From an uncultured Alphaproteobacteria bacterium (GTDB lineage Bacteria; Pseudomonadota; Alphaproteobacteria; CBDUZE01), in the NCBI GenBank assembly GCA_965371625.1, contig CBDUZE010000002.1:92960-156959 (forward strand): a stretch of 64,000 nt of DNA, read 5' to 3'. Made by a program: the position numbers and the translations under genes. Shown in pieces: positions 14,251-51,172 of the stretch. How positions within the stretch are numbered: position 1 is the stretch's first letter; every line of letters starts with the position of its first letter. The notes under the pieces were generated by a model that saw nothing but the letters and a program-made list of their open reading frames with translations, was not told the origin of the DNA and searched no databases.

Positions 14251-16689
14251 ATGCCGCTGGTGCTGGCGATCTCGGTGCTCTCGGCCGCGGTCGTCGGTTA
14301 CGAAATCCTCTTAATGCGGTTGTTCTCGGTCATCCAGTGGCACCACTTCGCCTACATGATCATCAGCTTGGCGCTCTTGGGCTACGGCGCCAGCGGTACG
14401 CTGCTCGCCTTCGTCCGCGACTGGGCGAGCGCGCGCTTCACCACCGTCTTCGCCGCCGGCGCGATACTCTTCGGCATCTCGGCGGTGGCCGCCTTCGCGC
14501 TGGCCCAGCGCACCCCCTTCAACCCCCTCGAGGTGGTCTGGGACCCACGCCAGTTCCTCTATCTCCTGGTCCTTTACGTGCTGTTGGCGGTGCCCTTCCT
14601 CTGTGCCGCGTTCCCCATCGGCCTCAGCTACTACCGTTATGGCGAGCGCATCGGCGCGCTTTATCGTGCCGACCTGGTGGGCGCCGGCAGCGGCGCCGGG
14701 ATCGTCATCCTGATGCTCTTCGTGCTGAGCCCCGAGCGCGCGCTCGAGCTCCTGGGGGCGCTGGGCTTCGTCGCCGGTGCCCTGGTCAGTCTCGAACGGC
14801 GGCGCGGCCTGCCCCTGGCACTGGCACTGATCGCGGCCGGCGTCCTCTCGCCTTACCTGTGGCCCGATTGGGCCGTGGCCTTTCGCCTTTCGCCCTACAA
14901 GGCACTGAGCCAGGCCTTGCAGGTGCCGGGAGCGCGGGTGGTGGCGGAGCGCTCGAGCCCGTTGGGCGTGCTCACCGTGGTGAGGAGCCCGATCATCCCG
15001 TTTCGCCACGCCCCCGGGCTGAGCCTGATGAACCAAGCGGAGGTGCCGCCTCAGATCGCCGTTTTCAGCGACGGCGAATCACTGACCGCGATCACGCGCA
15101 GCGAGGGCGGGCGCGAGGATGAAGCGCGCGAGTCGCTCGGCTATCTCGACTTCCAGACCGCGGCGCTGCCCTATCACCTGCTCGAGCACCCCCGGGTGCT
15201 GGTGCTCGGAGCGGGGGCCGGCGCCGACGTTCTGCTCGCCCGCTTTCACCATGCCGACACGATCGACGCCGTCGAGCTCAATCCCCAGATCGTGGCCCTG
15301 GTACGCGACGATTTCGCGGACTTCGCCGGGCACCTCTACCAATCGCCCGGGCTCCGCGTGACGGTGGCCGAGGCGCGCCGCTTCGTCACCGCGAGCCGCG
15401 AGGCCTACGACCTCATCCAGATCTCGCTGCTCGACTCCTTCGCCGCCTCGGTGGCCGGGCTCTATGCGCTCAACGAGAGCACGCTCTACACCGTCGAGGC
15501 CTTCGAGAGCTATCTCCGGCGGCTCGCGCCCGGCGGCTTCCTGGCCATCACCCGCTGGCTCAAGGTGCCGCCCCGCGACAGCCTCAAGCTGGTGGCGACC
15601 GCGGGCGCGGCGCTGGCGCGCCAGGGCGTGGCCGAGCCGGCGCGGCAGATCGCGCTCATCCGCGGCTGGAACACCTTCACGCTGCTGGTCAAGAACGGCG
15701 CCTTGAGCGACGCCGAGGTGGCGGCGGTGCGGGCGTTCGCCGCCGCCCGCGCCTTCGACCTCGCCCATCTGCCGGGGCTCTCGGAGCACGAGGCCAACCG
15801 CTACAACCTGCTCGCCGAGCCCTACTTCCACGCCGGCGCCCGGGCCTTGCTGGGGGCCGACGCCCGGGCCTTCGTGCGCGACTACAAGTTCGACGTCGCG
15901 CCGGCCACCGACGACCGCCCCTATTTCTTCCACTTCTTCAAGTGGCGGCTGCTGCCCGAACTGGTGGCCCTGGGCCCGGCCGCAGCCCCGCCGCTCCTGG
16001 AGCTGGGATATCTCGTGCTGGTGGTGACACTGGTGCAGGCGGCGCTCGTCGGCGCGGTCCTGATCGTACTGCCGCTCGGCGTCCTGAGGCGCGCGGGCTC
16101 GGGGCCCGGGGCCGGGCCGCGCCTGGCACAGGTGTTTCTCTACTTCGGCGCCCTGGGCCTCGCCTTCCTGTTCATCGAGATTGCCTTCATCCAGCGTTTC
16201 GTTCTGTTCCTGGGCCACCCGCTCTACGCCGTGGCCGTGGTGCTCGCCGCCTTCCTGGTGTTCGCCGGAGTCGGCAGCGGTCTCTCGCCCCGCCTCAGGC
16301 GGAGCGCCGGCGCGCGAGCCACCCCGCTCGCGGTGGCGGCCATCGTTCTCCTCGCCCTGCTCTACATCGTGCTGCTGCCTCCGCTCTTCGATTGGCTTGG
16401 GCCGCTCCCCATCGCCGTCCGGATCCCGGCCTCGCTGGCGCTGATCGCCCCGCTCGCCCTGGCCATGGGCCTGCCCTTTCCGCTCGGCCTCAGGCGCTTG
16501 GCGGAGGCGGCCCCTCATCTCGTCCCCTGGGCCTGGGCCGTCAACGGCTGCGCCTCGGTGCTCGCCGCCGTCCTCGCCACCCTGCTCGCCATCCAGTTCG
16601 GCTTCACCGTGGTGGTGGTGGTGGCGCTGGCGCTCTATCTGCTGGCGGCCGCCGTCTCCACCGGTCGCCGCTTCGCCCCGGCCGGCTAG
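14251..16689 (+). CDS. Large polytopic membrane protein with an embedded spermidine-synthase-like methyltransferase-fold domain
   Basis: Many TM segments flank a soluble domain with VLVLGAGAGADV...DAVELNPQIV...DLIQISLLDSF (spermine/spermidine synthase-like). Confidence 0.6.
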   Translation: MPLVLAISVLSAAVVGYEILLMRLFSVIQWHHFAYMIISLALLGYGASGTLLAFVRDWASARFTTVFAAGAILFGISAVAAFALAQRTPFNPLEVVWDPRQFLYLLVLYVLLAVPFLCAAFPIGLSYYRYGERIGALYRADLVGAGSGAGIVILMLFVLSPERALELLGALGFVAGALVSLERRRGLPLALALIAAGVLSPYLWPDWAVAFRLSPYKALSQALQVPGARVVAERSSPLGVLTVVRSPIIPFRHAPGLSLMNQAEVPPQIAVFSDGESLTAITRSEGGREDEARESLGYLDFQTAALPYHLLEHPRVLVLGAGAGADVLLARFHHADTIDAVELNPQIVALVRDDFADFAGHLYQSPGLRVTVAEARRFVTASREAYDLIQISLLDSFAASVAGLYALNESTLYTVEAFESYLRRLAPGGFLAITRWLKVPPRDSLKLVATAGAALARQGVAEPARQIALIRGWNTFTLLVKNGALSDAEVAAVRAFAAARAFDLAHLPGLSEHEANRYNLLAEPYFHAGARALLGADARAFVRDYKFDVAPATDDRPYFFHFFKWRLLPELVALGPAAAPPLLELGYLVLVVTLVQAALVGAVLIVLPLGVLRRAGSGPGAGPRLAQVFLYFGALGLAFLFIEIAFIQRFVLFLGHPLYAVAVVLAAFLVFAGVGSGLSPRLRRSAGARATPLAVAAIVLLALLYIVLLPPLFDWLGPLPIAVRIPASLALIAPLALAMGLPFPLGLRRLAEAAPHLVPWAWAVNGCASVLAAVLATLLAIQFGFTVVVVVALALYLLAAAVSTGRRFAPAG

Positions 16690-16838
16690 AGCAATTCCAG
16701 GTCACCTGGAATCGCTCTTGATTCTTTTCGCTCACGGCAGCGGACCCAAGGGTCCGCACCTGCGCGGGCGCGCCGGAGGACCGGCGGGCCGCAGTCGCGG
16801 CCTGAGAGCGGTTCCAATTGACCTTGAACCGCTCTAGC
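16686..16838. repeat. ~150-bp hairpin-rich intergenic repeat element, copy 1 (RIME/REP/MITE-like): two terminal ~14-bp stem-loops flanking a GC-rich core that contains a gcggaccc-aa-gggtccgc hairpin
   Basis: Read directly from the sequence. A near-identical inverted copy lies at 51017–51172. Confidence 0.75.
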
Positions 16839-16978
16839 CCGGCGGCAGGCTTCCTGCCTGCGGGTGCCTTGGTAGATCGCATCGTGGTCGGGTAAGCTCG
16901 ATTTCCCGGTCCGCCGGGGGCCGGCGGCGCTGTGCTATCGCCGCTTCGGGCCCACACCGTCGCCTCGAGGAGAGCCCG

Positions 16979-17452
16979 ATGATCCGCCTTGCCGTGCTGC
17001 TCTTGCTATTGCCAAGCGCCGCCTTGGCCGACGCCGTCGGCTCGGCGCGGGTGATCGACGGCGAGACCATCGAGGTAGCGGGCCAGCGCTTCCGCCTCTA
17101 CGGCATCGACGCGCCCGAGCCCGGGCAGTCCTGCGAACTTCGCGCCAAGACCATCCGTTGCGGCTACATCGCCAAGACCGCGCTCATGGACTTGACCGCG
17201 GGGGCCACGGTGTCGTGCGCGCCCCGCGCAGAGGCCGCGGGCGGAATCGCCGTGGCGACCTGCCTCGCCGATGGCTTCGATCTCTCGCGCAACATGGTGC
17301 ACACCGGTTGGGCGCTCGCCGACCGCGGCGTCACCACGCGATACGTCGCCACCGAGGACAAGGCCCGAGCAGCCAAGCGCGGCCTGTGGCGGGGCCGCTT
17401 CGTGCCGCCCTGGGAGTGGCGGCGCGGCAAGCGGCTGGCGACGGAGCAGTGA
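16979..17452 (+). CDS. Secreted thermonuclease (staphylococcal nuclease-like) family protein
   Basis: Signal peptide, then VIDGETIEVAGQRFRLYGIDAPE...WRGRFVPPWEWRR, which is SNase-like. Confidence 0.75.
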   Translation: MIRLAVLLLLLPSAALADAVGSARVIDGETIEVAGQRFRLYGIDAPEPGQSCELRAKTIRCGYIAKTALMDLTAGATVSCAPRAEAAGGIAVATCLADGFDLSRNMVHTGWALADRGVTTRYVATEDKARAAKRGLWRGRFVPPWEWRRGKRLATEQ

Positions 17453-17506
17453 GGGCGGCTCGAACCCCTTGCTCGCCGCGCCCGCGAAGGGCCGGATCGG
17501 GTGAGT

Positions 17507-18958
17507 TCAGCGCGCCTCGCTCGCGGCCCTGGCCCGGGCCATGATCTCGTCCGGGTCCAGCACCCGGCCGCCCTTGACCACGCGATGAATGCGTCGCGTG
17601 TTGCGAATGTCGGCCAGGGGATCGGCATCGAGGATCACCATGTCCGCGAGCTTGCCCGGCGCGAGGGTGCCGAGGTCGCCGGCGCGGCCCATGACCCGGG
17701 ACCCGCCCCGGGTCGCGGCCACCAGCACCGCCGCGGGCGTGAGGCCGGCCACCACCATCAGCTCGAGCTCGCGGTGCAGCGCCGGGCCGTGCAGGGTGCC
17801 GATGTTGCCGGCGTCGGAGCCGGCGGCGACGGTGATCCCGCGCGCCCACACCCGCGCCAGGTTGGCGCCGACCACCGGGTCGAGCGGCGGGTCGAGCGGC
17901 GGGTCGAGCGGCGGCGGCGAGCGCGGGCGCAGCCACGACGGCAGCAGACGGCGAGACAGGGTCTCGAGGTCGCGAAAGCTGGCGATCGCCTCGGGATCGC
18001 CCAGACGGCGTTCGATGTCGCTCAAACGGAGGTCGAGGCCAAGCACCTCGCGATAGCCCTCCTTGACCACGATGGTGGTGGTGTAGACCACGTCGCGCGC
18101 CTTCATCAGCGCCAGCAGCCGGTCGTCGACGGGGCCGTCGTCGATGCTGTGCGCGAGCACGTCGACGCCGGCCTCGATCATCGCGCGGGCGACCCGACGC
18201 TGGGTGGCATGCGCCACCACGCGCACGCCGCCGGCGTGGCTTTCCGCCACCGCGGCCCGCACCCAGGCGATCTCCGGCCCGAGCTCCCGAGCCGGAAAGA
18301 CGAACCAGATCTTGATCAGGTCGGGGTCATGGACGAGCTGGCGTCGGACCTCGGCGCGGGCCTCATCGGGGGTGGCGATCCTGACGATCGGCGGGTCGGC
18401 GGCCGCCAAAGCGGGCGGCGCGTAGGTCGCCAGCAGCGGCCCCGCCACCGCCACCCGCGGCGCCAGCGGCGTGCGGGCGGCACGAGCCCTCACCTCGAAG
18501 TTCCACAGCGGTCCGCCGACGTCGACCACCGCGGTGACCCCGCTGGCGAGATAGCGGGCCAGGGTGAGCTCGATCCGCGCCTTGACCCCGGCCACCTCTT
18601 CGGCATAGGGCCGGTGAGCGCGCAGGTCGATGATATCGGGACGGGTGTAGGCGCCGCCCGACTGAAAGAAATGGATGTGGGCGTCGACGAGACCGGGAAT
18701 GATCCACTTGCCGCCCACCTCGACGATGCGGGCCCGGGCCGGAAGCTCGAGCGCCCGGCCGCGGGCCACGGCGACGATGCGCTCGCCCTCCACCAGCACC
18801 GTGGCCTCGGGGAGCGGCGCGGCGCCACTGCCGTCGATCACCGTGGCGCCGACGAAGGCGATAACCTCGCCCTCGGCGCGGGCCCCGGAAACGGCCAGCA
18901 GGATCAGGGCGGCCGCCGCGAGCAGCGGCCGCCCATGCCCGATCCGGTTACGCTGCAT
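17507..18958 (-). CDS. Secreted amidohydrolase-family metal-dependent hydrolase
   Basis: Signal peptide. Motifs IPGLVDAHIHF and HAT...D. It contains an in-frame (PPLD)x3 repeat. Confidence 0.7.
   Translation of the reverse strand: MQRNRIGHGRPLLAAAALILLAVSGARAEGEVIAFVGATVIDGSGAAPLPEATVLVEGERIVAVARGRALELPARARIVEVGGKWIIPGLVDAHIHFFQSGGAYTRPDIIDLRAHRPYAEEVAGVKARIELTLARYLASGVTAVVDVGGPLWNFEVRARAARTPLAPRVAVAGPLLATYAPPALAAADPPIVRIATPDEARAEVRRQLVHDPDLIKIWFVFPARELGPEIAWVRAAVAESHAGGVRVVAHATQRRVARAMIEAGVDVLAHSIDDGPVDDRLLALMKARDVVYTTTIVVKEGYREVLGLDLRLSDIERRLGDPEAIASFRDLETLSRRLLPSWLRPRSPPPLDPPLDPPLDPVVGANLARVWARGITVAAGSDAGNIGTLHGPALHRELELMVVAGLTPAAVLVAATRGGSRVMGRAGDLGTLAPGKLADMVILDADPLADIRNTRRIHRVVKGGRVLDPDEIMARARAASEAR
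17878..17913. repeat. 12-bp tandem repeat (gggtcgagcggc) x3 inside the amidohydrolase CDS, encoding PPLDPPLDPPLD
   Basis: Read directly from the sequence. Confidence 0.7.
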
Positions 18959-19066
18959 GACCTCGTCCCGGTCCCGACCCTCGCGCGGCCCGAAGGCCTA
19001 CTCTAGCGCCGAACGTGAGACCGCGGGCAGAGCTTTGTGTTGTTGGCGGCCGCTTGGGATGCGCTG

Positions 19067-19894
19067 TTAGGTGATCTTCTCGCGCAGCGCGACGAGCAAT
19101 CCCTCGATGTTGCCGCCGGCGCTCTGGATGATCGAGGCGAACTCGGAGCGTTGGGTAATCGCCATGCTCACGCCGCTGACGACCACGTCGATGATGCGGT
19201 ATCCGGTGGCCGACCCGCTCACCAGCCAATTCACTTCCACCGGCGGCATGCCGGGGCGGGGGCGGTGGATGAGGCTCTTGACGATGACGATGTTGCGCCG
19301 GCTGGGCAGGGCGCCGGTAATTGCCAAGCTCTCGCCCGAGTACTTGGCGATCCGGCTGATGTAGACCGAGACGATCAAGGCCTCGAACAGGCGCCGATAC
19401 TCCACCTGCTGCGCCGCCGTCGCCCGTCGCCAATGGCGGCCCAACACGATGCGGCTGATGGTATCGACATCGAATCCCTGCACCAGGACGGCGCGCAGGA
19501 CCAGGACCCGTTGCTCGGGCGTCAGCGAACGATCGCTCATCGTGGCGATGGTGCGGTCGCTCAAGGCCTTGACGAAGCGCACGGCGCCTTGGATCGATAC
19601 CTTCCCAGCGCTCGGCGCGATGCTGCCGAGTCGCCAGGCCTCGGCGTCCTCGGCGATGTAGGCCGAGGGCTGCCTGGCGCCGGCGTCGACCGCCGCGATC
19701 CTGGCCGCGCTCTCATCCGCTAGCGAGCTCGCGCAGCCCGCCAGCAGCACCGCCATTGAGGCCAGCACGTGGAAGCCAAGCCGTGACCCTGCCCGACCGC
19801 GACCGCCTGTCGGCTGACTCGTCCGATCGCGGCGCGACGCCCGATCTAACCCGAGATTTTGGGCATTCTTACCCCAACGCAGAATCATCTTCAT
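19067..19894 (-). CDS. MlaC/Ttg2D-family periplasmic lipid-binding protein (start uncertain)
   Basis: C-terminal region ...YSGESLAITGALPSRRNIVIVKSLIHRPRPGMPPVEVNWLVSGSATGYRIIDVVVSGVSMAITQRSEF is typical of the MlaC/toluene-tolerance family. The N-terminal boundary is unclear (MKMILRW... vs MAVLLAGC...). Confidence 0.55.
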   Translation of the reverse strand: MKMILRWGKNAQNLGLDRASRRDRTSQPTGGRGRAGSRLGFHVLASMAVLLAGCASSLADESAARIAAVDAGARQPSAYIAEDAEAWRLGSIAPSAGKVSIQGAVRFVKALSDRTIATMSDRSLTPEQRVLVLRAVLVQGFDVDTISRIVLGRHWRRATAAQQVEYRRLFEALIVSVYISRIAKYSGESLAITGALPSRRNIVIVKSLIHRPRPGMPPVEVNWLVSGSATGYRIIDVVVSGVSMAITQRSEFASIIQSAGGNIEGLLVALREKIT

Positions 19895-20008
19895 CGTTGA
19901 ACACCCCAGCCGTCCAAGAATGACAGCATTAACCGGCACGCCTTAAGGACGCGTTAATCGCCCCGCTCGCCGAGGCGCCGGCCGATCGCCGGGCGACTGG
20001 CCCGAGCG

Positions 20009-20383
20009 CTATTCGTCGCAGGGAAAGGCTTCGCTCAACGCCGCCGTCACGGCGGTCGCCGCCGCTTGGTCCAGGGTCTCGGAATGACGTCGTGCCCAGT
20101 CGGCGAAGAGAAGGCGCATCTCTTCGTTGTTCAAGGTCCCGCCCGGGAGGCAGAAGCGGGCGCGCGCGTCGTCGGTCTTCGCCACCAAGGCATGGGTGTC
20201 GCCGACCCCATTGAGGAAGCCGTAACACAGCACCAGCGCGAGCGCGGTGGGCATATCGCCCTCGGCGTCCGCCGGGTGATGGTCGCAATACCGCGCCAGG
20301 TCCGCGGCGTCGTGAATTTCCTGCGCCGAGGCCGCCGGAATGAGTCCGGCGAGTACCGCGGCTATGCCTGCAAGTCGCTTCAT
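20009..20383 (-). CDS. Small secreted hypothetical protein (Cys-containing, ~124 aa)
   Basis: Internal Met start gives signal peptide MKRLAGIAAVLAGLIPAASAQE. Four Cys are present. Confidence 0.45.
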   Translation of the reverse strand: MKRLAGIAAVLAGLIPAASAQEIHDAADLARYCDHHPADAEGDMPTALALVLCYGFLNGVGDTHALVAKTDDARARFCLPGGTLNNEEMRLLFADWARRHSETLDQAAATAVTAALSEAFPCDE

Positions 20384-20514
20384 GGGAGCTGCCCCAGACG
20401 GCGCAAGAATCAGTGGATATCGTAGAGCGCCCGGGAGGCGCGGGCAATCCAACAGCGCGCGCCGACGGCGATGGCTGCCAATCCCGCGGATCGCGGAGAT
20501 CGGTCATCATCCGA

Positions 20515-20703
20515 TCAGGCCTGGACGTAGTCGCGCTCGGCCGGATCGTCGTGCCGCACCCACTTGTAGAGCAAGCGACGGGGATCGCGGACGCGCCCGC
20601 ACTTCACGCACTCGACGACGCCGTAACCGCGCAGGGCGAAAATCGTGTGACCGCAACTACATTCGACGTCGAAACCCGTCGGGTTCTCTTCGGTGATCTT
20701 CAT
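20515..20703 (-). CDS. Small zinc-ribbon protein (62 aa)
   Basis: CSCGH...CVKCGR four-cysteine motif. A compact ORF. Confidence 0.4.
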   Translation of the reverse strand: MKITEENPTGFDVECSCGHTIFALRGYGVVECVKCGRVRDPRRLLYKWVRHDDPAERDYVQA

Positions 20704-20992
20704 GACAGGCCTCCAGGCTTTGAGCGGCGGGCCGTAAACTGCCGCATGGCGTCTTCTACGACCTCAAAGATGGCACGAGAAGGGCCGGGAGCCAGTGACC
20801 AACGTCACAGGGGGAGACGTTCTTGGCGGTGCGGTGTGACAAGGTCGGCACGAAAACGGAAAATTAACCAACCACACGTATCGTCGCAGCCACTTCGGTC
20901 GGGGTTGACCTTTAGATGGTCGTGGCCAAGCCGGCGGCGACTCGCCGGGCGCTGAGGCCGGCGGTTGGGGCCCAACGAGACAGAGTGCCGGA

Positions 20993-22135
20993 ATGGAGAC
21001 AAGCGGCGTCCAATACCTGGAGAGCCTGGCCAAGCTGGCGGAGGAGCGATCGCCCGAAAAACGTCGGGTCCTGCTCGAGCGCATCTCGGATCTGTTCATC
21101 GCCTCGGGGCAGGAGGTGAGCGACGACGAATCGGCGCTCATGGGCGACATTCTCAATCGGCTGGTCCACGACGTGGAGATGACGGTGAGACGCACCCTCG
21201 CCGAACGTCTGGCCGACCTCGACAAAGCGCCGCGCGAATTGATCACCACCCTGGCCAATGACGAAATCGATGTCGCCGCGCCAATCCTGTTGAGTAGCGG
21301 CGTGCTCCAGGACAGCGACCTCATCGAGATCGTCAGACACCGCACCAAGGAGCACTTGATGGTGGTGGCCCGGCGCGACGCCATCAACGAGCCGGTGAGC
21401 GACGCCTTGGTGGACAACGGTGACGAGGACGTCATCGAGACCCTGCTCTATAACCATAACGCGATGATCTCGCGCCGCGCGATCAGCTATCTCGCCACCG
21501 AGTCGCAGCGGGTGGATCGCTTCCAGAAGCCGTTGCTGACCCGCCCCGACCTGCCGGCCAACCTCGCTTACGAGATGTTCGATTGGGTGTCCGCCGCCTT
21601 ACGCCAGCACATCCTCAGCAGCTACGACATCGACGAGACGCTGGTCGACGGTGTGCTCGAGGAAACGAAAAGGACGGCGTTGGACGATGACGACCTCGGC
21701 GCCGCGAGCAACGAGGCGATGAAACTGGTCCAGCGGCTCGAAAAGGCCGGGATGCTGACGGAAAGCTTTCTTGTGCAGACGCTCCGGGACGGACGGATCG
21801 GCGTCTTCATATCCGCGCTGGCCACCAAGAGCGGCATCGACCTCCAGACCGCCCGGCGCATCTTCTTCGACCGCGGCGAGGAGGGGCTGGCCATTATCTG
21901 CAAGGCCAGCGGCTTCGATCGCTCGACCTTCGCCTCGCTCACCCTGCTGCGGCGGAAAAGCGCCGAGCAAAGCGGACCCATGGCGCCCACGGTGCTGGAG
22001 AAGTTGATGAGCATGTACGACACCATCACCGCGCGCAACGCGCGGCGCGTTCTGCGCTTCTGGAACATCCGACAGCACGAGATCGGGACCCCGCCGGCCC
22101 AGGGTAGCGGCGCGGCGGTTGCGACAAGCATGTAA
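20993..22135 (+). CDS. DUF2336-family protein (HEAT-like repeats), copy 1
   Basis: 380-aa protein identical to the copy at 22577..23719. Repeat-rich helical motifs (ILLSSGVLQDSDLIEIVRHRTKEHLMVVARRD...) recall the alphaproteobacterial DUF2336 family. Confidence 0.6.
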   Translation: METSGVQYLESLAKLAEERSPEKRRVLLERISDLFIASGQEVSDDESALMGDILNRLVHDVEMTVRRTLAERLADLDKAPRELITTLANDEIDVAAPILLSSGVLQDSDLIEIVRHRTKEHLMVVARRDAINEPVSDALVDNGDEDVIETLLYNHNAMISRRAISYLATESQRVDRFQKPLLTRPDLPANLAYEMFDWVSAALRQHILSSYDIDETLVDGVLEETKRTALDDDDLGAASNEAMKLVQRLEKAGMLTESFLVQTLRDGRIGVFISALATKSGIDLQTARRIFFDRGEEGLAIICKASGFDRSTFASLTLLRRKSAEQSGPMAPTVLEKLMSMYDTITARNARRVLRFWNIRQHEIGTPPAQGSGAAVATSM

Positions 22136-22199
22136 CGGCGGATCGATCCCGGGTGCCGGCGGGCCCGGAGACACCGGCATAGCGGCGGAGAGCGAGATC

Positions 22200-22384
22200 G
22201 TGCGCAGGTGTATTTCAGCTTCGGATACCAACGGGACCTTCATCGGGTCAACAAGATCCGCCAGCTGCCGTAAATCATTGCCGGCGCGGCGGCGGGATTT
22301 TAGAGCGCCAAGATTTGGCAGGAGGCAAAGCGCAACGGCGATGGGGCGGTCCGTGGCCTCATCAACGACGCCCTCAGTGGCACC
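22200..22384 (+). pseudogene. Degenerate 5' fragment of the TIR-like gene (1-bp deletion, in-frame TAA)
   Basis: Alignable to 23784–23968 but carries cagg-tgta (1-bp deletion), ctgccgTAAatc and ~10% substitutions. Confidence 0.55.
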
Positions 22385-23968
22385 AACGTCACAGGGGGAG
22401 ACGTTCTTGGCGGTGCGGTGTGACGAGGTCGGCACGAAAACGGAAAATTAACCAACCACACGTATCGTCGCAGCCACTTCGGTCGGGGTTGACCTTTAGA
22501 TGGTCGTGGCCAAGCCGGCGGCGACTCGCCGGGCGCTGAGGCCGGCGGTTGGGGCCCAACGAGACAGAGTGCCGGAATGGAGACAAGCGGCGTCCAATAC
22601 CTGGAGAGCCTGGCCAAGCTGGCGGAGGAGCGATCGCCCGAAAAACGTCGGGTCCTGCTCGAGCGCATCTCGGATCTGTTCATCGCCTCGGGGCAGGAGG
22701 TGAGCGACGACGAATCGGCGCTCATGGGCGACATTCTCAATCGGCTGGTCCACGACGTGGAGATGACGGTGAGACGCACCCTCGCCGAACGTCTGGCCGA
22801 CCTCGACAAAGCGCCGCGCGAATTGATCACCACCCTGGCCAATGACGAAATCGATGTCGCCGCGCCAATCCTGTTGAGTAGCGGCGTGCTCCAGGACAGC
22901 GACCTCATCGAGATCGTCAGACACCGCACCAAGGAGCACTTGATGGTGGTGGCCCGGCGCGACGCCATCAACGAGCCGGTGAGCGACGCCTTGGTGGACA
23001 ACGGTGACGAGGACGTCATCGAGACCCTGCTCTATAACCATAACGCGATGATCTCGCGCCGCGCGATCAGCTATCTCGCCACCGAGTCGCAGCGGGTGGA
23101 TCGCTTCCAGAAGCCGTTGCTGACCCGCCCCGACCTGCCGGCCAACCTCGCTTACGAGATGTTCGATTGGGTGTCCGCCGCCTTACGCCAGCACATCCTC
23201 AGCAGCTACGACATCGACGAGACGCTGGTCGACGGTGTGCTCGAGGAAACGAAAAGGACGGCGTTGGACGATGACGACCTCGGCGCCGCGAGCAACGAGG
23301 CGATGAAACTGGTCCAGCGGCTCGAAAAGGCCGGGATGCTGACGGAAAGCTTTCTTGTGCAGACGCTCCGGGACGGACGGATCGGCGTCTTCATATCCGC
23401 GCTGGCCACCAAGAGCGGCATCGACCTCCAGACCGCCCGGCGCATCTTCTTCGACCGCGGCGAGGAGGGGCTGGCCATTATCTGCAAGGCCAGCGGCTTC
23501 GATCGCTCGACCTTCGCCTCGCTCACCCTGCTGCGGCGGAAAAGCGCCGAGCAAAGCGGACCCATGGCGCCCACGGTGCTGGAGAAGTTGATGAGCATGT
23601 ACGACACCATCACCGCGCGCAACGCGCGGCGCGTTCTGCGCTTCTGGAACATCCGACAGCACGAGATCGGGACCCCGCCGGCCCAGGGTAGCGGCGCGGC
23701 GGTTGCGACAAGCATGTAACGGCGGATCGATCCCGGGTGCCGGCGGCACCGGAGACAGCGGCAAAGCTTCGGAGAGTGAGATCGTGCGCAGGGTGTACTT
23801 CAGCTTCGACTACCGATGGGACCTTCATCGGGTCAACAAGATCCGCCAGCTGCCGCAAATCATTGCCGGCGCGGCGGCGGGATTTCAGAGCGCCAAGATT
23901 TGGCAGGAGGCAAAGCGCAACGGCGACGGAGCGGTCCATGGCCTCATCAACGACGCCCTCAGTGGCAC
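22385..23968 (+). repeat. Tandem direct repeat unit 2 (1,584 bp)
   Basis: See unit 1. Confidence 0.85.
22577..23719 (+). CDS. DUF2336-family protein, copy 2
   Basis: Identical translation to copy 1. Confidence 0.6.
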   Translation: METSGVQYLESLAKLAEERSPEKRRVLLERISDLFIASGQEVSDDESALMGDILNRLVHDVEMTVRRTLAERLADLDKAPRELITTLANDEIDVAAPILLSSGVLQDSDLIEIVRHRTKEHLMVVARRDAINEPVSDALVDNGDEDVIETLLYNHNAMISRRAISYLATESQRVDRFQKPLLTRPDLPANLAYEMFDWVSAALRQHILSSYDIDETLVDGVLEETKRTALDDDDLGAASNEAMKLVQRLEKAGMLTESFLVQTLRDGRIGVFISALATKSGIDLQTARRIFFDRGEEGLAIICKASGFDRSTFASLTLLRRKSAEQSGPMAPTVLEKLMSMYDTITARNARRVLRFWNIRQHEIGTPPAQGSGAAVATSM

Positions 23969-24278
23969 CAGCGTCACCGTGGTCTGCGTCGGCCACACGA
24001 CCGCCCATCGCAAGTACATCGTTTACGAGCTTGAACGGTCGTTCGAGCGCGGTAACGGACTGGTGGGGATCACCATCAACCACCTGAGCGATGGACAGGG
24101 GAAGTCCGACCCCGAGGCCTCGATTCCCCCGCTGCTCACGATCTCGGAAGCAGGCATCTACAAGTACAGCAACAAGCGGGATCTGGTGAATTGGATCGAG
24201 CAGGCGGCGGAAGCCGCCGCGCGAGAGCGCCAGCACGATTATCAGCATCAGCTCGTGATCCAGGGCAGCCCGGCCTAA
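23784..24278 (+). CDS. TIR-like domain protein (DUF1863/ThsB-like), GTG start
   Basis: N-terminal RRVYFSFDYRWDLHRVNKIRQ... matches the '(K/R)VF(F/I)SFxY' opening of TIR-like DUF1863 domains. GGAGAG 7 nt upstream of the GTG. Length ~165 aa. Confidence 0.5.
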   Translation: MRRVYFSFDYRWDLHRVNKIRQLPQIIAGAAAGFQSAKIWQEAKRNGDGAVHGLINDALSGTSVTVVCVGHTTAHRKYIVYELERSFERGNGLVGITINHLSDGQGKSDPEASIPPLLTISEAGIYKYSNKRDLVNWIEQAAEAAARERQHDYQHQLVIQGSPA

Positions 24279-24305
24279 GAGAGCGCGATGCGAGCGCTGC
24301 CCCGC

Positions 24306-24995
24306 TCAGGGCGTGAAAGAAACCTCGGTCGGCAGCTCCACCCCCTCGAGCGCGACCACGCGGGCCGGCGCGCCATCCAAGCCCTCAAGTTTGAGCGGCA
24401 GGGCGAAGATCACGCAGCGCGGGCGCGAGATCGCCGCCAGATTGCGCACGTACTCGACGTTGCAGATGTCGTGGCCCAGGAGGCGGTGGTGAACGCTGCA
24501 ATCCTCGGCGCGAAAGCCCGGCTGGCGGACCACGTACTCCTCGGAGAAGTCATAGACCACGGCCTTGACGCCGCGCTCGACCAGCCAGTCGGCGCCCTCC
24601 ACCGTGAGGTAGGGGCCCTCGCGCCAGAACCTCTCGGTACCCCAGCAGGCATCGCTCCAGCCGGTGCGCAGGACGGCGATATCACCTCGTTTGGTGTGAC
24701 GGCCGCGGTCCTCGAGCGTGTCGCCGGCGATGCCGGCCTCGGGGCCGTGATCGCTGAGCTCAATCACCGCCGCCGGCCCCACCAGCTTGGCCAGCGGCAC
24801 CGCGTCGATCGCGGCGCCGCCGGCGATGAAGTGGCTGGGCGCGTCCACGTGGGTGCCGTAATGGCAGAACATGCTGAAGGTCGAGCCCGCCCAGCCCGCC
24901 TCGTCGAGGCGATACGGGGTTTCGAACGCCACCTCCAGGCCCATGCGGCCGTCGCCGTGGCGAATGGCTATCGAAAGGTCGATGAGGTCGGCCAT
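24306..24995 (-). CDS. Cyclase-family protein (kynurenine formamidase-like)
   Basis: HYGTHVDAPSHF motif and length (229 aa) are typical of the PF04199 cyclase family. Confidence 0.75.
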   Translation of the reverse strand: MADLIDLSIAIRHGDGRMGLEVAFETPYRLDEAGWAGSTFSMFCHYGTHVDAPSHFIAGGAAIDAVPLAKLVGPAAVIELSDHGPEAGIAGDTLEDRGRHTKRGDIAVLRTGWSDACWGTERFWREGPYLTVEGADWLVERGVKAVVYDFSEEYVVRQPGFRAEDCSVHHRLLGHDICNVEYVRNLAAISRPRCVIFALPLKLEGLDGAPARVVALEGVELPTEVSFTP

Positions 24996-25054
24996 GTCAG
25001 GGGCTCCCGGGACCGGACGGTAGGCCGCGAAGGCGCGCCGCCGCCGCGCGAGAT

Positions 25055-25128
25055 TGGCTGGGGCGGCAGGAATCGAACCTGCGATCGCGGGACCAAAACC
25101 CGCTGCCTTACCACTTGGCTACGCCCCA
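25055..25128 (-). tRNA. tRNA-Gln (anticodon TTG)
   Basis: Minus-strand sequence TGGGGCGTAGCCAAGTGGTAAGGCAGCGGGTTTTGGTCCCGCGATCGCAGGTTCGATTCCTGCCGCCCCAGCCA folds as a cloverleaf. Acceptor UGGGGCG/CGCCCCA, anticodon stem GCGGG/CCCGC with loop UUUUGGU giving anticodon UUG, T-arm GGTTCGATTCC, encoded CCA. Confidence 0.9.
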
Positions 25129-25242
25129 GCGGAGGGCGGCGCGTGGACCATAAGCAGAACTCATCGGCGCTTCAACATCGCCCGACCACGGCGCGCCGGT
25201 GAGGTGCCCGATTTGGGCCTCCGTCTCGGCGCCGCTCCGGCG

Positions 25243-26256
25243 TCAGGCGATGGTGCGTGTTTGCTGGGCGAAGATCCTGTGGCTCGCGCCGACCACAACG
25301 GCGTAGTAGCTCAGCGTCAGCAGCACCCAAAGGAGGGTCTGCTGGGGCCACGCCAGGGCCATCAGATTGGGCAGCGCCACCATCGCCAGGTAGACCGGCA
25401 AGGCCCGGCGCCAGGGCATCAGCCGCTCGAGAATGTGGTGCAGGTGGTCGCGGTCCGAGGTGAACGGCGAGCGGCCGCGCAACACCCGGGTTGCCATCAG
25501 GCGCAGACAATCCACCACCGGCACCAGGAACCAGAGCGCCACGATGTCGGCGGGCAAGGTCGCGAAGTTGACCTGATAGCAATAGATCGCCAGGAGACCG
25601 ACGGCGATGCTCAGCGAGTAGGTCCCGGAATCACCCAGGAACAGGCGCCCCGTCAGGTTGAAGACGAAACCGATGGCAAGCGTAATGGCGAGTACGGCGA
25701 GCAGGGGATAGAGGTGCCCCGGCGCGTAAGCGAACAACAACATGGTCCACACCAACGACAGCCCGAGCACCAGCCCGTTCTTGCCGTCCGCCATGTTGAC
25801 CGCGTTCTGCAGCCCCACCAGGCAGAGCAAGGTGAAGATCGGCCCCACCCAGCCGTCGAGGAACAGGGCCCGAGGCAGGAAGCTGAACTTCAGGAACGAG
25901 ATCTCGAAGGCGGGGACCGAAAGGATCACTACCAGTCCCAGGGTGAAGGACGCCGCCAGCCGCCATACCGGTCGAATGTGCTTGCGGTCGTCGACGAAGC
26001 CGAGCCCCAGAAACGCCGCTAGCGCCACCAACAAGGTGACGTAAAAGGGTCCGAACTCGGTGGTGGCGGCCTGGATCGCGGCCATCGCGCAGACCGAGAC
26101 CATGATCGCCAGCCCGCCGACCAACGGAGTCGGGCGATCGTGGGTCTTGCGCTGGCCGTCGGGCAGGTCGACGACGCGCAGCCAGCCGCCCACCGGGGTC
26201 GCGAACGCACACACCAGGAGCGTGAACGCGCCCAGCCCCAAATAAGCCGCAATCAT
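25243..26256 (-). CDS. Glycosyltransferase family 4 polyprenyl-phosphate N-acetylhexosamine-1-phosphate transferase (WecA/WbpL-like initiating enzyme)
   Basis: Polytopic. Motifs VDDRKHI and NAVNMADGKNGLVLGL (MraY/WecA signature). The ORF-track first codon is TTG, so the internal ATG (MIAAYLG...) was used. Confidence 0.75.
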   Translation of the reverse strand: MIAAYLGLGAFTLLVCAFATPVGGWLRVVDLPDGQRKTHDRPTPLVGGLAIMVSVCAMAAIQAATTEFGPFYVTLLVALAAFLGLGFVDDRKHIRPVWRLAASFTLGLVVILSVPAFEISFLKFSFLPRALFLDGWVGPIFTLLCLVGLQNAVNMADGKNGLVLGLSLVWTMLLFAYAPGHLYPLLAVLAITLAIGFVFNLTGRLFLGDSGTYSLSIAVGLLAIYCYQVNFATLPADIVALWFLVPVVDCLRLMATRVLRGRSPFTSDRDHLHHILERLMPWRRALPVYLAMVALPNLMALAWPQQTLLWVLLTLSYYAVVVGASHRIFAQQTRTIA

Positions 26257-32357: not shown

Positions 32358-33380
32358 ATGGAGCTATTCGGCAAAGATTTGGATCACGAGATCGCCCTCG
32401 TTGCCGAGATCGGCGTCAACCACGAGGGCGACGTCGAGAAGGCCTCAGAGCTGGTGCGCCTGGCTTCGGAGTCCGGGGCCGACGCGGTCAAGTTCCAAAG
32501 CTTCACCCCGGCGCGCTACGCCTCGGCCTCGGATCGGGCGCGGCTCGCCCGCGTCACCGGCTTCGCCCTCGACGAGGCGGCGCACCGGCGGCTGGCGGCG
32601 GAGGCGGCGAAGCTCGGCGTGGTGTTCTTCTCGACCGCGGTCTCCGAGGACCTGGTCCCGCTCCTGGCCGAGATGTGCCCGGCGATCAAGATCGCCAGCG
32701 GCGACCTCGACTTCGAGCCGGTGATCCGCGCCGCGGCGGCGACCGGCAAGCCGCTGATCATCTCCACCGGACTCGGCACCCTCGACGAGGTCGACCAGGC
32801 GGTGGATTGGGTGCGCGACGAGGTCGGCGCGGCGGCGCTGCCCGAGCGCCTGGTGCTGCTGCAGTGCGTGAGCGCCTACCCGACACCCGTCGAGGAGGCC
32901 AACGTGCTCGCCGTGCCCTTGCTCGCCGAGCGCTACGGCGTCCCGGTCGGCTTCTCCAACCACGTGCTTGGGCCCGAGGCCTGCTACGCGGCGATCGCCC
33001 ACGGCGCCAGCCTGATCGAGGCCCATTTCACCGACGCCAAGGCGGGGCGCTCGTTCCGCGACCACGAGCTCAGCTTCGAGCCCCAGGAGTTCGCGACGCT
33101 GGCCGCGGCCGCGCCCAGGATCCGCGCCGCTCTGGGGAGCGGCGCCAAGGAGCGCCAGCCGAGCGAGAGCGCTATCCTGGCAGCGGTGCGCAAGGGCGTG
33201 GTGGCGGCGCGCGACCTCCCGGCCGGACACGAGCTCGCGGCCAAAGACCTGATGTACGCACGCCCGGCGACCGAGTTCGCGGCCCATGAGCTCCCCACCC
33301 TGGTGGGGCGGCGGCTGGTGGCGGCGGTGGCCACGGGCGAGCTCATCGCCCGCGACAACGTGGCAGGGGTCAAGTCTTGA
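32358..33380 (+). CDS. neuB: NeuB-family nonulosonic acid (sialic/legionaminic/pseudaminic acid-type) synthase with a C-terminal SAF domain
   Basis: HEIALVAEIGVNHEGD...AVKFQSF...FFSTAV... TIM-barrel motifs plus an SAF-like C-terminus. Confidence 0.8.
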   Translation: MELFGKDLDHEIALVAEIGVNHEGDVEKASELVRLASESGADAVKFQSFTPARYASASDRARLARVTGFALDEAAHRRLAAEAAKLGVVFFSTAVSEDLVPLLAEMCPAIKIASGDLDFEPVIRAAAATGKPLIISTGLGTLDEVDQAVDWVRDEVGAAALPERLVLLQCVSAYPTPVEEANVLAVPLLAERYGVPVGFSNHVLGPEACYAAIAHGASLIEAHFTDAKAGRSFRDHELSFEPQEFATLAAAAPRIRAALGSGAKERQPSESAILAAVRKGVVAARDLPAGHELAAKDLMYARPATEFAAHELPTLVGRRLVAAVATGELIARDNVAGVKS

Positions 33381-33448
33381 CATTTATCATTTTCCGGAGG
33401 TCGCGGCCGGTGGCGGAGGTAAAATGATAAATGTCAAGACTTGACCCC
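33366..33448. repeat. Perfect 28-bp AT-rich inverted repeat (ggggtcaagtcttgacatttatcatttt / aaaatgataaatgtcaagacttgacccc) around a 27-nt GC-rich loop
   Basis: Read directly from the sequence. The left arm overlaps the neuB stop codon and the right arm ends 13 nt before the asnB-like start. Confidence 0.85.
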
Positions 33449-33460
33449 TAAAGACTAAAG

Positions 33461-35314
33461 ATGTGCGGCATCGCTGGATCGTTGGGGCCTGTGGCGCCGG
33501 CGCCCGAGCGCGTCGAGGCCACGCTCGGCCTGATGCGGAACCGCGGCCCCGATGCCTCGGGCACCTGGAGCGGCCGGCTGGGCCAGTCGACGCTCACGCT
33601 CCTGCACACCCGCCTCTCGATCATCGACCTCGACCCCCGCGCCGACCAGCCCTTCGAATCGGGCGACGTGGTGATCGTCCACAACGGCGAGATCTACAAT
33701 TATCTCGAGCTCAGGGCCGAGCTCGAGGGGCTGGGCCACCGCTTCCGTACTTCGTCGGACACCGAGGTCATCGTCGAGGCCTACCGTCGCTGGGGCGAGG
33801 CCTGCGTCGAGCGCTTCGAGGGCATGTGGGCGTTCGCGCTGCTCGACCGTCGCGCCGGCCGGCTGATCTTGAGCCGCGACCGCTTCGGCGAGAAGCCGCT
33901 CTACTGGATGCGCTCGGGCGGCACCCTCTACTTCGGCTCCGAGGTCAAGTTCCTGGCCGGCTTGAGCGGCGCGGCGCCGGTGGTCGACGTCCAGCACCTG
34001 AGGCGCTATCTGGTCAACGGCTACAAGGCGCTCTACAAGCAGCCGGCCAGCTTCCTGGTGGGCGTCTCGGAGCTTCCCCCGGCCTCCTCCGCCACCCTCA
34101 CCGGCGCCGATGAGCCGGCTCCCCGGCGCTACTGGCAACTCGCCTACGAGCCCCGCGACATGACCATGGAGGAGGCCATCGCGGGCACCCGCGAGCGCCT
34201 TTACCGGGCGCTCGAGATCCGCCTCAGGGCCGACGTGCCGGTTGCCTTCTGTCTCAGCGGCGGCATCGATTCGAGCGCCCTGGCCTCGATCGCCACCAAG
34301 CACTTCGGCCAGCGCATCCACGCCTTCTCGATCATCGATTCGGATGAGCGCTACGACGAATCGGCCAACATCGAGGCCACGGTCGCCGACCTCGGCTGCG
34401 ACCACCACGTGACCCGGACCAGTACCGAGGGCTTCTTCGAGCGCATGGCGGAGCTCGTCACCTATCACGACGCCCCGGTGGCGACGATCTCCTATTACGT
34501 CCACGCCTTCCTGTCCGAGGAGATCCAGGCGCAGGGCTTCAAGGTGGCGCTCTCAGGCGGCGGCGCCGACGAGCTCTTCACCGGCTACTACGATCACTAC
34601 GGCTTCTGGCTCGCCGAGATGCACGGCTGCGAGGACTTCCCCGCGCTCCTCGACGACTGGCGCCGAAGCTACGGCGTCTTCGTCCAGAACCCCCTCCTCC
34701 AGGACCCGCTCGCCTTTCACCGTGACCCCGGCCAGCGTGGACATATCTACCTCAACCGCGAGCTCTTCGCCTCCTTGCTCAGCGAGCCCTTCGACGAGGA
34801 ATTCACCGAGACCGCCTACTGCTCGAGCCTGTTGCGCAACCGCATGCTCAACGAGCTCCACCACGAGGCGGTGCCGGTGATCCTTCACGAGGACGACCTC
34901 AACTCGATGCGCTATTCGGTGGAGAACCGCTCGCCCTACCTCGATCGGAATCTGGCCGAGTTCCTGTACTCGGTCCCCAGCGAGCACCTGATCAATGACG
35001 GCTATGCCAAGTGGTTGCTACGCGCCGTGGCCAAGGGCGTGGTCAACGACCAGGTGCGCCTCGACCGGCGCAAGCGCGGCTTCAACACCTCGATCGACTC
35101 GCTCATCGACCGCGCCGACCCCGAGACCCGCGAGCGCCTCTTGGCGCCCAGTCCGATCTTCGATCTGGTCAAGCGCGAGGCCCTCGAATCGTTCCTCGAC
35201 CGCGACATGACCGACAACAGCTTGTCCAAGTTCCTGTTCTCCTTCGTCTCGGCCAAGCTGTTCCTGGAATCGGACCTGGTCGCCGGCGCGCGTCCGGCGC
35301 GCGACGCGGCATGA
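33461..35314 (+). CDS. Asparagine synthetase (glutamine-hydrolysing) family amidotransferase (WbuX/PseA-like candidate)
   Basis: N-terminal MCGIAG nucleophile and an SGGIDSS PP-loop. Length 617 aa. Confidence 0.8.
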   Translation: MCGIAGSLGPVAPAPERVEATLGLMRNRGPDASGTWSGRLGQSTLTLLHTRLSIIDLDPRADQPFESGDVVIVHNGEIYNYLELRAELEGLGHRFRTSSDTEVIVEAYRRWGEACVERFEGMWAFALLDRRAGRLILSRDRFGEKPLYWMRSGGTLYFGSEVKFLAGLSGAAPVVDVQHLRRYLVNGYKALYKQPASFLVGVSELPPASSATLTGADEPAPRRYWQLAYEPRDMTMEEAIAGTRERLYRALEIRLRADVPVAFCLSGGIDSSALASIATKHFGQRIHAFSIIDSDERYDESANIEATVADLGCDHHVTRTSTEGFFERMAELVTYHDAPVATISYYVHAFLSEEIQAQGFKVALSGGGADELFTGYYDHYGFWLAEMHGCEDFPALLDDWRRSYGVFVQNPLLQDPLAFHRDPGQRGHIYLNRELFASLLSEPFDEEFTETAYCSSLLRNRMLNELHHEAVPVILHEDDLNSMRYSVENRSPYLDRNLAEFLYSVPSEHLINDGYAKWLLRAVAKGVVNDQVRLDRRKRGFNTSIDSLIDRADPETRERLLAPSPIFDLVKREALESFLDRDMTDNSLSKFLFSFVSAKLFLESDLVAGARPARDAA

Positions 35315-37829: not shown

Positions 37830-37889
37830 GGTCGGGGCCGGGGCCGGGAACGATGCCCCCGCCCCCAATCCAGCCGAATCACGAAAATC

Positions 37890-40541: not shown

Positions 40542-40561
40542 CCGAGGCCGGACTTATCCTC

Positions 40562-41716: not shown

Positions 41717-41745
41717 CCCCTGCCCCGTCCCGGAATGAACCGAAC

Positions 41746-43556: not shown

Positions 43557-43568
43557 GCGGAAAGCGGC

Positions 43569-44615: not shown

Positions 44616-44655
44616 ACACTCCGCGCCAGCGTGATCTCGATACGACAGCGCTAAA

Positions 44656-45954: not shown

Positions 45955-45956
45955 GC

Positions 45957-47722: not shown

Positions 47723-47735
47723 GCGGAGAGCCGGC

Positions 47736-48887: not shown

Positions 48888-48891
48888 GGCC

Positions 48892-49470
48892 ATGGCGACG
48901 CCGCCTGAGCTCGAGTGCGAGCGCCTGCGCCTGGTGCCCTTCGCCGAGCAGCACCTGAGCGAACGCTACGTGGGCTGGCTCAACGATCCAGAGGTGGTGC
49001 GGTTCAGCGAGCAGCGCCATCGCCAGCACAGCCTCGAGTCGTGCCGCGCCTATTGGCGCTCCTTCGAGGACGCGCCCAACCTGTTCTGGGCCATCGTCGC
49101 CCGCGACCCCGGGCTCGGCCATATCGGCAATCTGAGCGTCTATGTCGACCCCCCCAATCGGCTCGCCGACGTCACCATCCTGATCGGCGAGAAGCGGGCC
49201 TGGAAGCGGGGCCTGGGGTCCGAGGCCTGGTCGGCGGTGTGCGACTACCTGTTGGCGGCGGGCGGCATGCGCAAGGTCTCGGCCGGCACGCTGGCCGAGA
49301 ACGCGGGCATGCTCGGCATCATGCGCCGCGCCGGCATGGTCGAGGACGGCCGGCGGCGGCGCCACTACCTGTTGGAGGATCGCGAGGTCGACGTGGTCCA
49401 CCTCGCCCTGTTCCGGAGCGTCCCGCGAGGGCATCGCCTTGCGCCCGACCTTGAGAAAGCCCGCACATGA
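48892..49470 (+). CDS. GNAT-family N-acetyltransferase (RimL-like)
   Basis: ...GNLSVYVDPPNRLADVTILIGEKRAWKRGLGSEAW... GNAT core. Confidence 0.6.
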   Translation: MATPPELECERLRLVPFAEQHLSERYVGWLNDPEVVRFSEQRHRQHSLESCRAYWRSFEDAPNLFWAIVARDPGLGHIGNLSVYVDPPNRLADVTILIGEKRAWKRGLGSEAWSAVCDYLLAAGGMRKVSAGTLAENAGMLGIMRRAGMVEDGRRRRHYLLEDREVDVVHLALFRSVPRGHRLAPDLEKART

Positions 49471-50963: not shown

Positions 50964-51016
50964 TATGGCGTCCCGAGCCGGCGAAGGGTGCGGGAGCTCG
51001 GCATGGGCCGCATGGG

Positions 51017-51172
51017 CTCTAGAGCGAGTCCAGGTCAATTGGAATCGCTCTCAGGCCGCGACTGCGGCCCGCCGGTCGTCCGGCGCGCCCGCGCAGGCGC
51101 GGACCCTCGGGTCCGCTGCCGTGAGCGAAAAGAACCTAGGGCGGTTCCGAGCAATGCGGAACCGCTCTAGGC
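51017..51172. repeat. ~150-bp hairpin-rich repeat element, copy 2 (inverted relative to copy 1 at 16686..16838)
   Basis: The reverse complement aligns to copy 1 with a near-identical ~100-bp core. The terminal stems carry compensatory changes. Confidence 0.75.

Follow-up and report, generated by a model that had tools for sequence, protein, structure and literature searches.

We analysed a 64,000-nt stretch of contig CBDUZE010000002.1 from an uncultured alphaproteobacterium (hereafter, the window) and found that two inverted copies of a 152-bp hairpin-rich element, copy A (16686-16837, plus strand) and copy B (51019-51170, minus strand, in reverse orientation), belong to an undescribed and apparently abundant repeat family of uncultured marine alphaproteobacteria that breaks metagenome assemblies. 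The element occurs in many dispersed copies, carries inverted terminal units, is flanked by CTAG, is present at a site in some close relatives and missing there in others, and lies on stop codons in both orientations. With a probability of about 0.72, we consider copies A and B to be independent insertions of a new family of small, non-autonomous elements of the MITE type (miniature inverted-repeat transposable elements), which use CTAG/TA as target. The original prediction had assigned the pair to the class of repetitive extragenic palindromic (REP), RIME or MITE-type elements, and the dispersal, the inverted terminal units, the CTAG flanks, the presence or absence between close relatives and the maintained pairing of the stems all support that class.

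An inverted-repeat scan of the window returned one long pair (arms 16676-16837 and 51019-51180, 162 nt, 86% complementary), which far exceeds every other inverted pair of the window in length. With the limits of the element taken from flanking CTAG to flanking CTAG, the two mutually reverse-complementary elements of ~150 bp in the original prediction are real and lie within 1-2 nt of where they had been placed. Aligned in the same orientation with MAFFT, the copies show 87% mean column identity, and their longest identical run is 32 nt. The element contains stop codons in five of the six frames and lies outside the flanking genes, the shared stop codon excepted. Each copy is composed of a CTAG, a 31-nt palindromic unit, a 9-nt T-rich spacer, a 75-nt core, a second palindromic unit and a closing CTAG, where the left CTAG overlaps the left unit's first base pairs and the right unit ends in CTAG. 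The left palindromic unit has the form AGAGCRRTTCC-loop-GGAAYYGCYCT. The hairpin-unit pattern has 0.00 occurrences expected in shuffled sequence, which excludes chance.

In copy A, the left CTAG (16686-16689) is followed by the left unit AGAGCAATTCCAGG-TCA-CCTGGAATCGCTCT (16688-16718), the spacer TGATTCTTT between left unit and core (16719-16727; family consensus CATTTTG), the conserved core (16728-16802), the right unit AGAGCGGTTCC-AATTGACCT-TGAACCGCTCT (16805-16835) and the right CTAG (16834-16837). Copy B reads on the minus strand as left CTAG (51167-51170), left unit AGAGCGGTTCCG-CATTGCT-CGGAACCGCCCT (51138-51168), core (51054-51128), right unit AGAGCGATTCCA-ATTGACC-TGGACTCGCTCT (51021-51051) and right CTAG (51019-51022). 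The core holds three hairpins: an extended one built in both copies around GCGGACCC-NN-GGGTCCGC (as GCGGACCC-AA-GGGTCCGC at 16740-16757 in copy A; 51099-51116 in copy B), a second of the form CGCCGG-N4-CCGGCG (CGCCGG-AGGA-CCGGCG at 16771-16786; 51070-51085) and a third, GGCCGC-AGTC-GCGGCC (16787-16802; 51054-51069). The terminal stems and the central GC hairpin that had been described earlier are thus in place, and two further GC hairpins had been overlooked. The left unit of copy A is 88% identical to the reverse complement of the right unit of copy B (repeat scan, family D7), which establishes a true terminal inverted repeat. Of the differences between the copies, 12 fall among the 35 positions of the left unit, 4 among the 84 of spacer plus core and 4 among the 33 of the right unit, and three stem pairs are altered on both sides and remain paired in each copy; the conserved core and compensatory end stems claimed before are therefore borne out.

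Evidence for insertion comes from a relative (L069) whose homologue of the 812-aa gene upstream of copy A is 94% identical and from which copy A is missing. The blastn alignment to this relative covers window positions 13211-16692 at 94.1% identity and resumes at 16840 at 89.7%, a break that indicates a clean insertion of 147-148 bp in the window. The empty site reads GGA TAG GGCGGCGGCAGG (GGA TAG GGC) with a single TAG, and the filled site in the window reads GGC TAG [AGC...GCTC TAG] CCCGGCGGCAGG, with the inserted sequence in brackets. A second, 82% identical relative (L070) reads GTC TAG GCG and has no element. At this locus the same relative carries a ParE/HTH toxin-antitoxin pair (L070:8095-8742) where the spacer of the window (16838-16979 region) holds copy A, and the amidohydrolase gene of the window (17507-18958, minus strand) is additional, with no alignment to L070; judged from these sequences, the intergenic stretch at copy A appears to be a hot spot of gain and loss.

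Copy B recurs at the corresponding position of a contig of 97.3% identity (L073) that breaks off within the copy, and is absent from a 70% homologue, where the gene ends in TGA. At a further site, the purK locus, L076 and L078 (PurK 90% and 87% identical) have a single CTAG at the stop, and L010 and L077 are filled. We had considered L010 as a clean insertion between two convergent stops and rejected this, as blastn shows the loss of an hsp20 segment on the right side: relative to L076:3159-4087 and L078:1231-2126, ~0.85 kb with the HSP20 gene is missing at L010:3625-3810. The malQ gene of L010 has lost its own stop and reads through to the terminal TAG of the element. The loss may represent an adjacent deletion associated with the element or recombination between two copies.

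To define the family, a strict 21-nt core pattern was run on a species-representative genome collection and yielded seven loci, of which only L004 and L007 looked related; the remaining five (L001, L002, L003, L005 and L006) were rejected, having only a short GC hairpin in common with the element. L004 has no left hairpin and retains an 80-nt piece of the core, 93% identical, that immediately follows a stop codon, and L007, in an alphaproteobacterial metagenome-assembled genome (MAG), is a diverged modular version. The L004 contig (JADFKB010000100.1, 9.6 kb) is labelled as part of a Chloroflexota MAG, whereas all other informative host signals are alphaproteobacterial; possible causes are mis-binning of this contig and transfer of the element across phyla. 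Metagenome contigs scanned with a looser core pattern of two anchors yielded 61 loci, mostly from two marine data sets (prefixes SMVA01 and Ga0114949), and an nhmmer profile built from the metagenome loci found 63 instances at 57 distinct sites outside the window and only copies A and B within it. Fifteen of the 63 instances lie at or over contig ends, as expected of a repeat that breaks assemblies. The genes next to the copies are of unrelated housekeeping types (SDR, ABC transporters, ADH/zinc dehydrogenases). As for the hosts, the closest named homologues of the 812-aa protein of the window are in alphaproteobacterial MAGs and Geminicoccaceae at ~60% identity, and PurK of an SMVA01-type host is 65-70% identical to Kiloniellales proteins. 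Outside these sources, 72,556 plasmids, rhizobial replicons included, were searched by blastn with copy A and with the family consensus and gave only short GC-rich chance matches in Mesorhizobium and Azospirillum, viral contigs scanned with the core and left-unit patterns gave no match, and a full-text literature search with the core sequence retrieved no paper.

The family consensus is CTAG-AGCCGTTCCGATTTGATCGGAACCACT-CTAG-CATTTTG-[core]-GAGG-AGCGATTCCAGACAAACTGGAATCGCT-CTAG. Its left unit matches the reversed right unit at ~21/31 positions by hand count, the asymmetric TTTG loop included, and most copies start and end with CTAG, with TTAG, CTAA and CCAG as variants. Divergent members keep the core and either carry an unrelated left hairpin with CTAG-like feet (L031, L014, L009, L026, L041 and L052) or lack the left hairpin, with TAG directly before the spacer (L004, L011, L023, L028, L030 and L065). 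Several copies are rearranged: L045:1-264 is a head-to-tail tandem pair of whole elements that share a fused hairpin, L034:2875-2935 exactly lacks the left hairpin, with one CTAG remaining, and has an internal core deletion, L060:1009-1111 has a core deletion between GCGG repeats, and the copy at L017:1-60 is preceded by a 12-nt partial terminal repeat. Bacterial MITEs usually have terminal inverted repeats, a terminal TA and a target duplication (PMC2229807). The present family is non-coding and shorter than ~300 bp, and it has terminal inverted repeats, both filled and empty sites and many dispersed copies (57 + 2).

The relation of the element to stop codons was assessed by requiring that the TAG at an end close an open frame with a coding signature in third-position GC (GC3). 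The left TAG closes a gene in 23/44 copies, the right-end TAG does so on the other strand in 15/38, and at least one end closes a gene in 23 of the 29 copies with both ends readable. Both window copies do so with their left ends: the TAG at 16687-16689 in copy A is the stop of the 812-aa spermidine-synthase-like gene (14251-16689), and the minus-strand TAG at 51169-51167 in copy B is the stop of the amidase gene (51167-52594, minus strand). Since either end can close a gene, the element is not oriented to the gene that it follows. CTAG itself is scarce in the window, which has 34 occurrences where composition predicts 199 and a second-order Markov estimate 71.5, and many of the remaining sites coincide, by eye, with the ends of open reading frames (ORFs). 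The element thus offers a tidy case of target choice, in which a palindromic CTAG is tolerated mainly at TAG stops in a GC-rich genome and a TAG at both ends of the element regenerates the stop in either landing orientation.

On the preferred reading, a transposase encoded elsewhere in the genome would move the element in trans, and insertion at CTAG/TA sites would leave (C)TAG on both flanks. CTAG, rare in this genome of 66% GC, would persist mostly where it holds a TAG stop, and the surviving insertions would be those placed exactly on stops, where the terminal TAG of the element restores the stop; copies would be found on stop codons because the survivors are the insertions that broke no gene. 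The inverted orientation of the two window copies would be a coincidence, and the element might, as a side effect, influence termination or stability of the upstream mRNA. As to the enzyme, we favour a DDE transposase with IS630-like or IS5/IS427-like targeting of TA within CTAG, with an HUH enzyme as the main alternative. IS630 prefers TA within CTAG and duplicates the TA (PMC2170065), and IS711 duplicates the TA of YTAR (PMC2266754).

Several points weigh against this reading. An autonomous partner was not found among the 28 window ORFs scanned or among recurrent genes at the loci; no transposase or recombinase appeared among these 28 ORFs, for which the glycan genes at 32-48 kb were scanned only in part. 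No cognate insertion sequence with the same terminal repeats was present in the 514 kb examined, the 28 window ORFs, the plasmids or the viral contigs, and clustering of ORFs across loci for a partner gene returned only SDR, ABC and ADH families. A DDE transposase in L074/L075, near an amidase homologue, was dropped as a candidate, its ends being unrelated. Across divergent members conservation is higher in the core than in the left terminal unit, which is replaced or absent, whereas an end bound by a transposase is expected to be better conserved than the core; in part this reflects ascertainment, as the search pattern selected for the core. Moreover, a DDE enzyme does not require hairpin ends with maintained pairing. 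A clean two-sided empty site comes from copy A only, and at purK the left junction alone is clean. Finally, as far as the junction sequences go, a duplication of TA, TAG or CTAG and an insertion beside a fixed cleavage tetranucleotide would look the same.

The original prediction had further proposed that the pair brackets a 34-kb block and could mediate its inversion. In that case the copies would serve as a recombination substrate that flips the block, or would mark it as a mobile or invertible unit, which we regard as highly improbable. The copies are inverted and share the 32-nt identical run; about 32 nt is the minimum length for RecA-dependent exchange. Rearrangements beside copies also happen, as the ~0.85-kb deletion at the L010 copy relative to two close relatives shows. 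The overall identity of the pair is only 86%, however, and copy A is absent from the 94% relative. The 82% relative, which also lacks copy A, matches the window across the junction in one orientation (window 7213-25870) and is collinear with it, with the same gene order of PCMT, the 812-aa gene, SNase, MlaC, Rap1a, DUF2336, ThsB-TIR and cyclase. The GC skew does not change direction at 16.7 or 51.1 kb, and no invertase or integrase lies beside either copy, the neighbours being spermidine-synthase-like, SNase, amidohydrolase, capsule-synthesis and amidase genes. Given 57 further distinct sites, the copies are not tied to the block; this largely matches the picture of copies scattered without orientation bias that the prediction had itself set against its proposal. 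A special relation of the pair to the block, or its inversion, finds no support in the missing copy A of the 94% relative, the collinear 82% relative and the lack of a skew flip. For annotation, the pair should not be taken as the boundary of an invertible or mobile 34-kb island, and the defence module, tRNA-Gln and glycan genes inside are not set apart by it. Rare RecA-mediated exchange between the copies might take place, but nothing points to such an event here or sets the pair apart from the 57 other sites.

We next consider the hairpins, whose stability and pairing bear on the remaining alternatives. Predicted folds of the element strand reach -92.2 kcal/mol for copy A (z = -8.0 against shuffles) and -91.5 kcal/mol for copy B (z = -5.4), and the opposite strand of copy A folds equally well (z = -8.0); in the folding check that had been proposed, copy A on both strands and copy B on the element strand are all far more stable than shuffled sequence. 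Covariation was tested with a five-helix structure on a 42-member MAFFT alignment (A3) and 500 shuffles. In this structure 91.2% of cells pair, a share that drops to 32-41% once the 3' partners are shifted by 1-3 columns, and double-sided changes occur at 25 pairs, against 9.8 in shuffles, none of the 500 shuffles reaching the observed values. The covariation sits mostly in the terminal units, with double changes at 12/15 and 8/12 stem pairs. The core stems hardly vary among the 42 members and core variation falls mostly in loops, although 28 core columns were fixed by the search pattern and invariance there is uninformative. Minor-allele frequencies in the canonical subfamily are highest in the right unit (0.102), followed by the left unit (0.054) and the free core columns (0.038). 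Stem mismatches recur at columns 8-9/31-32 and 133/152, which are unpaired in about 20 of the 42 copies. Strand asymmetry is mixed, with more G-U than A-C cells in helices 2 and 5 and the reverse in helix 1, so that no single transcribed strand is singled out. The compensatory changes of the end hairpins hold family-wide, yet fit an RNA and a DNA hairpin alike. In quasi-palindromes, template-switch correction can produce paired changes in DNA without selection.

These data could also be explained if the element were mainly a selected 3'-end module, acting as a terminator, in mRNA protection or as a small RNA, with its spread being secondary. We consider this quite unlikely. The very stable predicted fold and the maintenance of all five helices, with core variation mostly in loops, agree with it, as do the short T-rich tract after the left hairpin, which is there even where the sequence of that hairpin is unrelated, the position of most copies directly after a stop codon, and the conservation of the core in hosts whose proteins are only 60-70% identical. 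The same element, however, lies in both orientations to the gene (23 versus 15), and a reversed copy lacks the T tract behind its hairpin; copy A folds equally well on its opposite strand, and the G-U versus A-C asymmetry points forward for helices 2 and 5 and backward for helix 1. A scan for consensus promoters and terminators at both copies found none. In Rfam gathering mode only a tRNA (25058-25128) passes in the whole window and the element is unmatched, and E-value mode gives only chance-level, sub-threshold matches in the element region (mir-1829, 29 bits against 60; CC1840, 15.9 against 50). The orthologous site in the 94% relative is simply without the element, and the paired changes could have arisen by template-switch correction as above.

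A real though minority possibility is that the element is REP/bacterial interspersed mosaic element (BIME)-like or IS200/IS605-like and that an HUH tyrosine transposase of the RAYT or TIRYT type moves it as single-stranded DNA. Such an enzyme would recognize the shape of the hairpin and cut the adjoining (C)TAG, and the repeated CTAG would be a tag left by cleavage, with no duplication of the target. GTAG-tagged REPs often give a TAG stop codon to flanking ORFs, RAYT cleaves the tag on single-stranded hairpin DNA and depends on a mismatch in the stem to do so, and double-palindromic terminal repeats flank some RAYT-like genes (PMC3733652). Both ends of the present element are hairpins whose pairing is kept by the double changes described above, and they carry recurrent internal mismatches at fixed stem positions in ~20/42 copies; the 31-nt terminal units with these mismatches correspond to the imperfect palindromes of 20-40 bp that characterize REPs. 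CTAG stands on either side of the left hairpin, and in L034:2875-2935 precisely this hairpin is lost, with one CTAG kept; the tandem array in L045 is BIME-like. Non-autonomous elements of the IS200/IS605 type have subterminal hairpins and insert 3' of a fixed tetranucleotide with no duplication and with a strand bias relative to replication; the hairpins at both ends of the present element adjoin the CTAG, an arrangement that by sequence is indistinguishable from a duplication.

Other observations speak against an HUH enzyme. The tag is CTAG and not the GTAG or CGTC of REPs, with only the TAG part in common with GTAG. REP units also occur singly, as dimers or in clusters, whereas in the 514 kb examined, the 29 other CTAG sites of the window included, we found no solo or dimeric hairpin unit outside the composite element and no hairpin unit apart from the core. 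No Y1 transposase was seen in the scanned ORFs, and the orientation to the upstream gene (23 versus 15) shows no clear bias. Movement by an HUH/RAYT enzyme accounts better than the MITE reading for palindromic, covarying and mismatch-bearing ends, and fails on the tag and the solo hairpins.

The element also contains GANTC, the CcrM motif, at fixed columns of both right-unit arms (A3 columns 131-135 and 150-154), in 35/42 and 26/42 copies, respectively, with 1.86 sites per element against 0.47 expected. In copy B the two sites lie in the right unit (51026 and 51042) and in copy A at 16709 and 16720. This raises the question of a marine relative or analogue of the CcrM-associated intergenic repeats (CIRs) of Caulobacter and Brucella, kept for its GANTC methylation sites, which we find very doubtful. 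CIRs are ~110 bp long and consist of two inverted-repeat arms and a linker with a conserved GANTC, and they are shared between alphaproteobacteria (PMC2229807). The architecture is similar here, and the fixed position and excess of GANTC in both arms fit, as does the behaviour of its central N, which is free to vary and lacks a partner in 20/42 copies, with pairing retained at the adjacent stem positions. However, the right unit of copy A and several divergent members have no GANTC (the latter none at all), the motif, which belongs to the terminal-repeat consensus GCGATTCC, may be incidental, and the plasmid search, with rhizobial replicons in the set, found nothing similar.

Two features alone, the palindromic covarying ends and the fixed GANTC, set the family apart from a textbook MITE. 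On a further reading, which we judge unlikely, the family would not be a plain DDE-type MITE but a mosaic element whose CTAG-tagged hairpin ends are recognized by shape and not by sequence, which is moved as single-stranded DNA by an undescribed RAYT/TIRYT-like HUH enzyme, and whose conserved three-hairpin core and paired GANTC are kept because they are used by the host for transcript 3'-end formation or CcrM-dependent control. If true, the family would be a marine counterpart of the poorly understood CIR repeats, and the persistence of the core beyond the end hairpins, together with the replacement of left units by unrelated CTAG-footed hairpins, would be explained.

Other repeats and genes in the window were recorded alongside the element. 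A perfect 300-nt direct repeat (20798-21097 and 22382-22681) and a 93% identical 191-nt direct repeat (22207-22397 and 23792-23982) share a period of ~1,584 bp. Here two tandem copies of the DUF2336 gene (20993-22135 and 22577-23719, 380 aa each) precede a ThsB-TIR gene (23703-24278); the 82% relative has a single DUF2336 gene plus ThsB-TIR. In the glycan locus, between the ORFs at 32358-33380 and 33461-35314, lies a perfect 29-nt inverted repeat of AGGGGTCAAGTCTTGACATTTATCATTTT and its complement with a 27-nt spacer (33365-33449), AT-rich in a genome of 66% GC. A second small repeat type, based on GCGGTCAGC/GCTGACCGC motifs, is found at 1631-1726 and 6978-7008 (I4 and I15), as one inverted repeat of 34 nt, its spacer being 28 nt long, and a related arm 5 kb away. 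Towards the end of the window (58000-64000), GC falls from ~0.65-0.70 to 0.55 in a region with sulfotransferase and NAD-dependent epimerase genes, which may be a horizontally acquired end of the glycan locus.

Among known systems, the element resembles the bacterial MITEs moved by transposases of the IS630/Tc1-mariner type, such as RUP of Streptococcus pneumoniae and the Correia elements of Neisseria, with which it shares a length of ~100-160 bp, the lack of coding capacity and terminal inverted repeats (PMC2229807), a TA at the extreme ends and insertion at TA, with CTAG as the preferred site of IS630 (PMC2229807, PMC2170065), and many dispersed intergenic copies near gene ends with stable hairpins. 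It differs from them in being GC-rich where they are A+T-rich, in terminal repeats that are themselves palindromes with covarying arms, and in that no cognate insertion sequence and no similarity in the plasmid set or Rfam was found. IS711 of Brucella (IS5 family, IS427 group) likewise has an alphaproteobacterial host, a YTAR/CTAG target and TA duplication (PMC2266754), but it is an autonomous insertion sequence of 842 bp with 20-bp repeats, and no related transposase or matching ends were found here. With the GTAG-tagged REP/BIME systems the element has in common imperfect palindromes of 20-40 bp, an xTAG tag that serves as a stop, conserved mismatches and mosaic or tandem arrangements (PMC3733652); by contrast, its tag is CTAG, its hairpins always flank the 75-nt core and no RAYT gene was seen. 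Caulobacter CIR1-4 and Brucella Bru-RS1/2, compared by description only, are alphaproteobacterial intergenic repeats of ~100-110 bp with two arms, a linker and GANTC, whereas the present element is longer, at 152 bp, and holds its GANTC in the stem arms and not in the loop.

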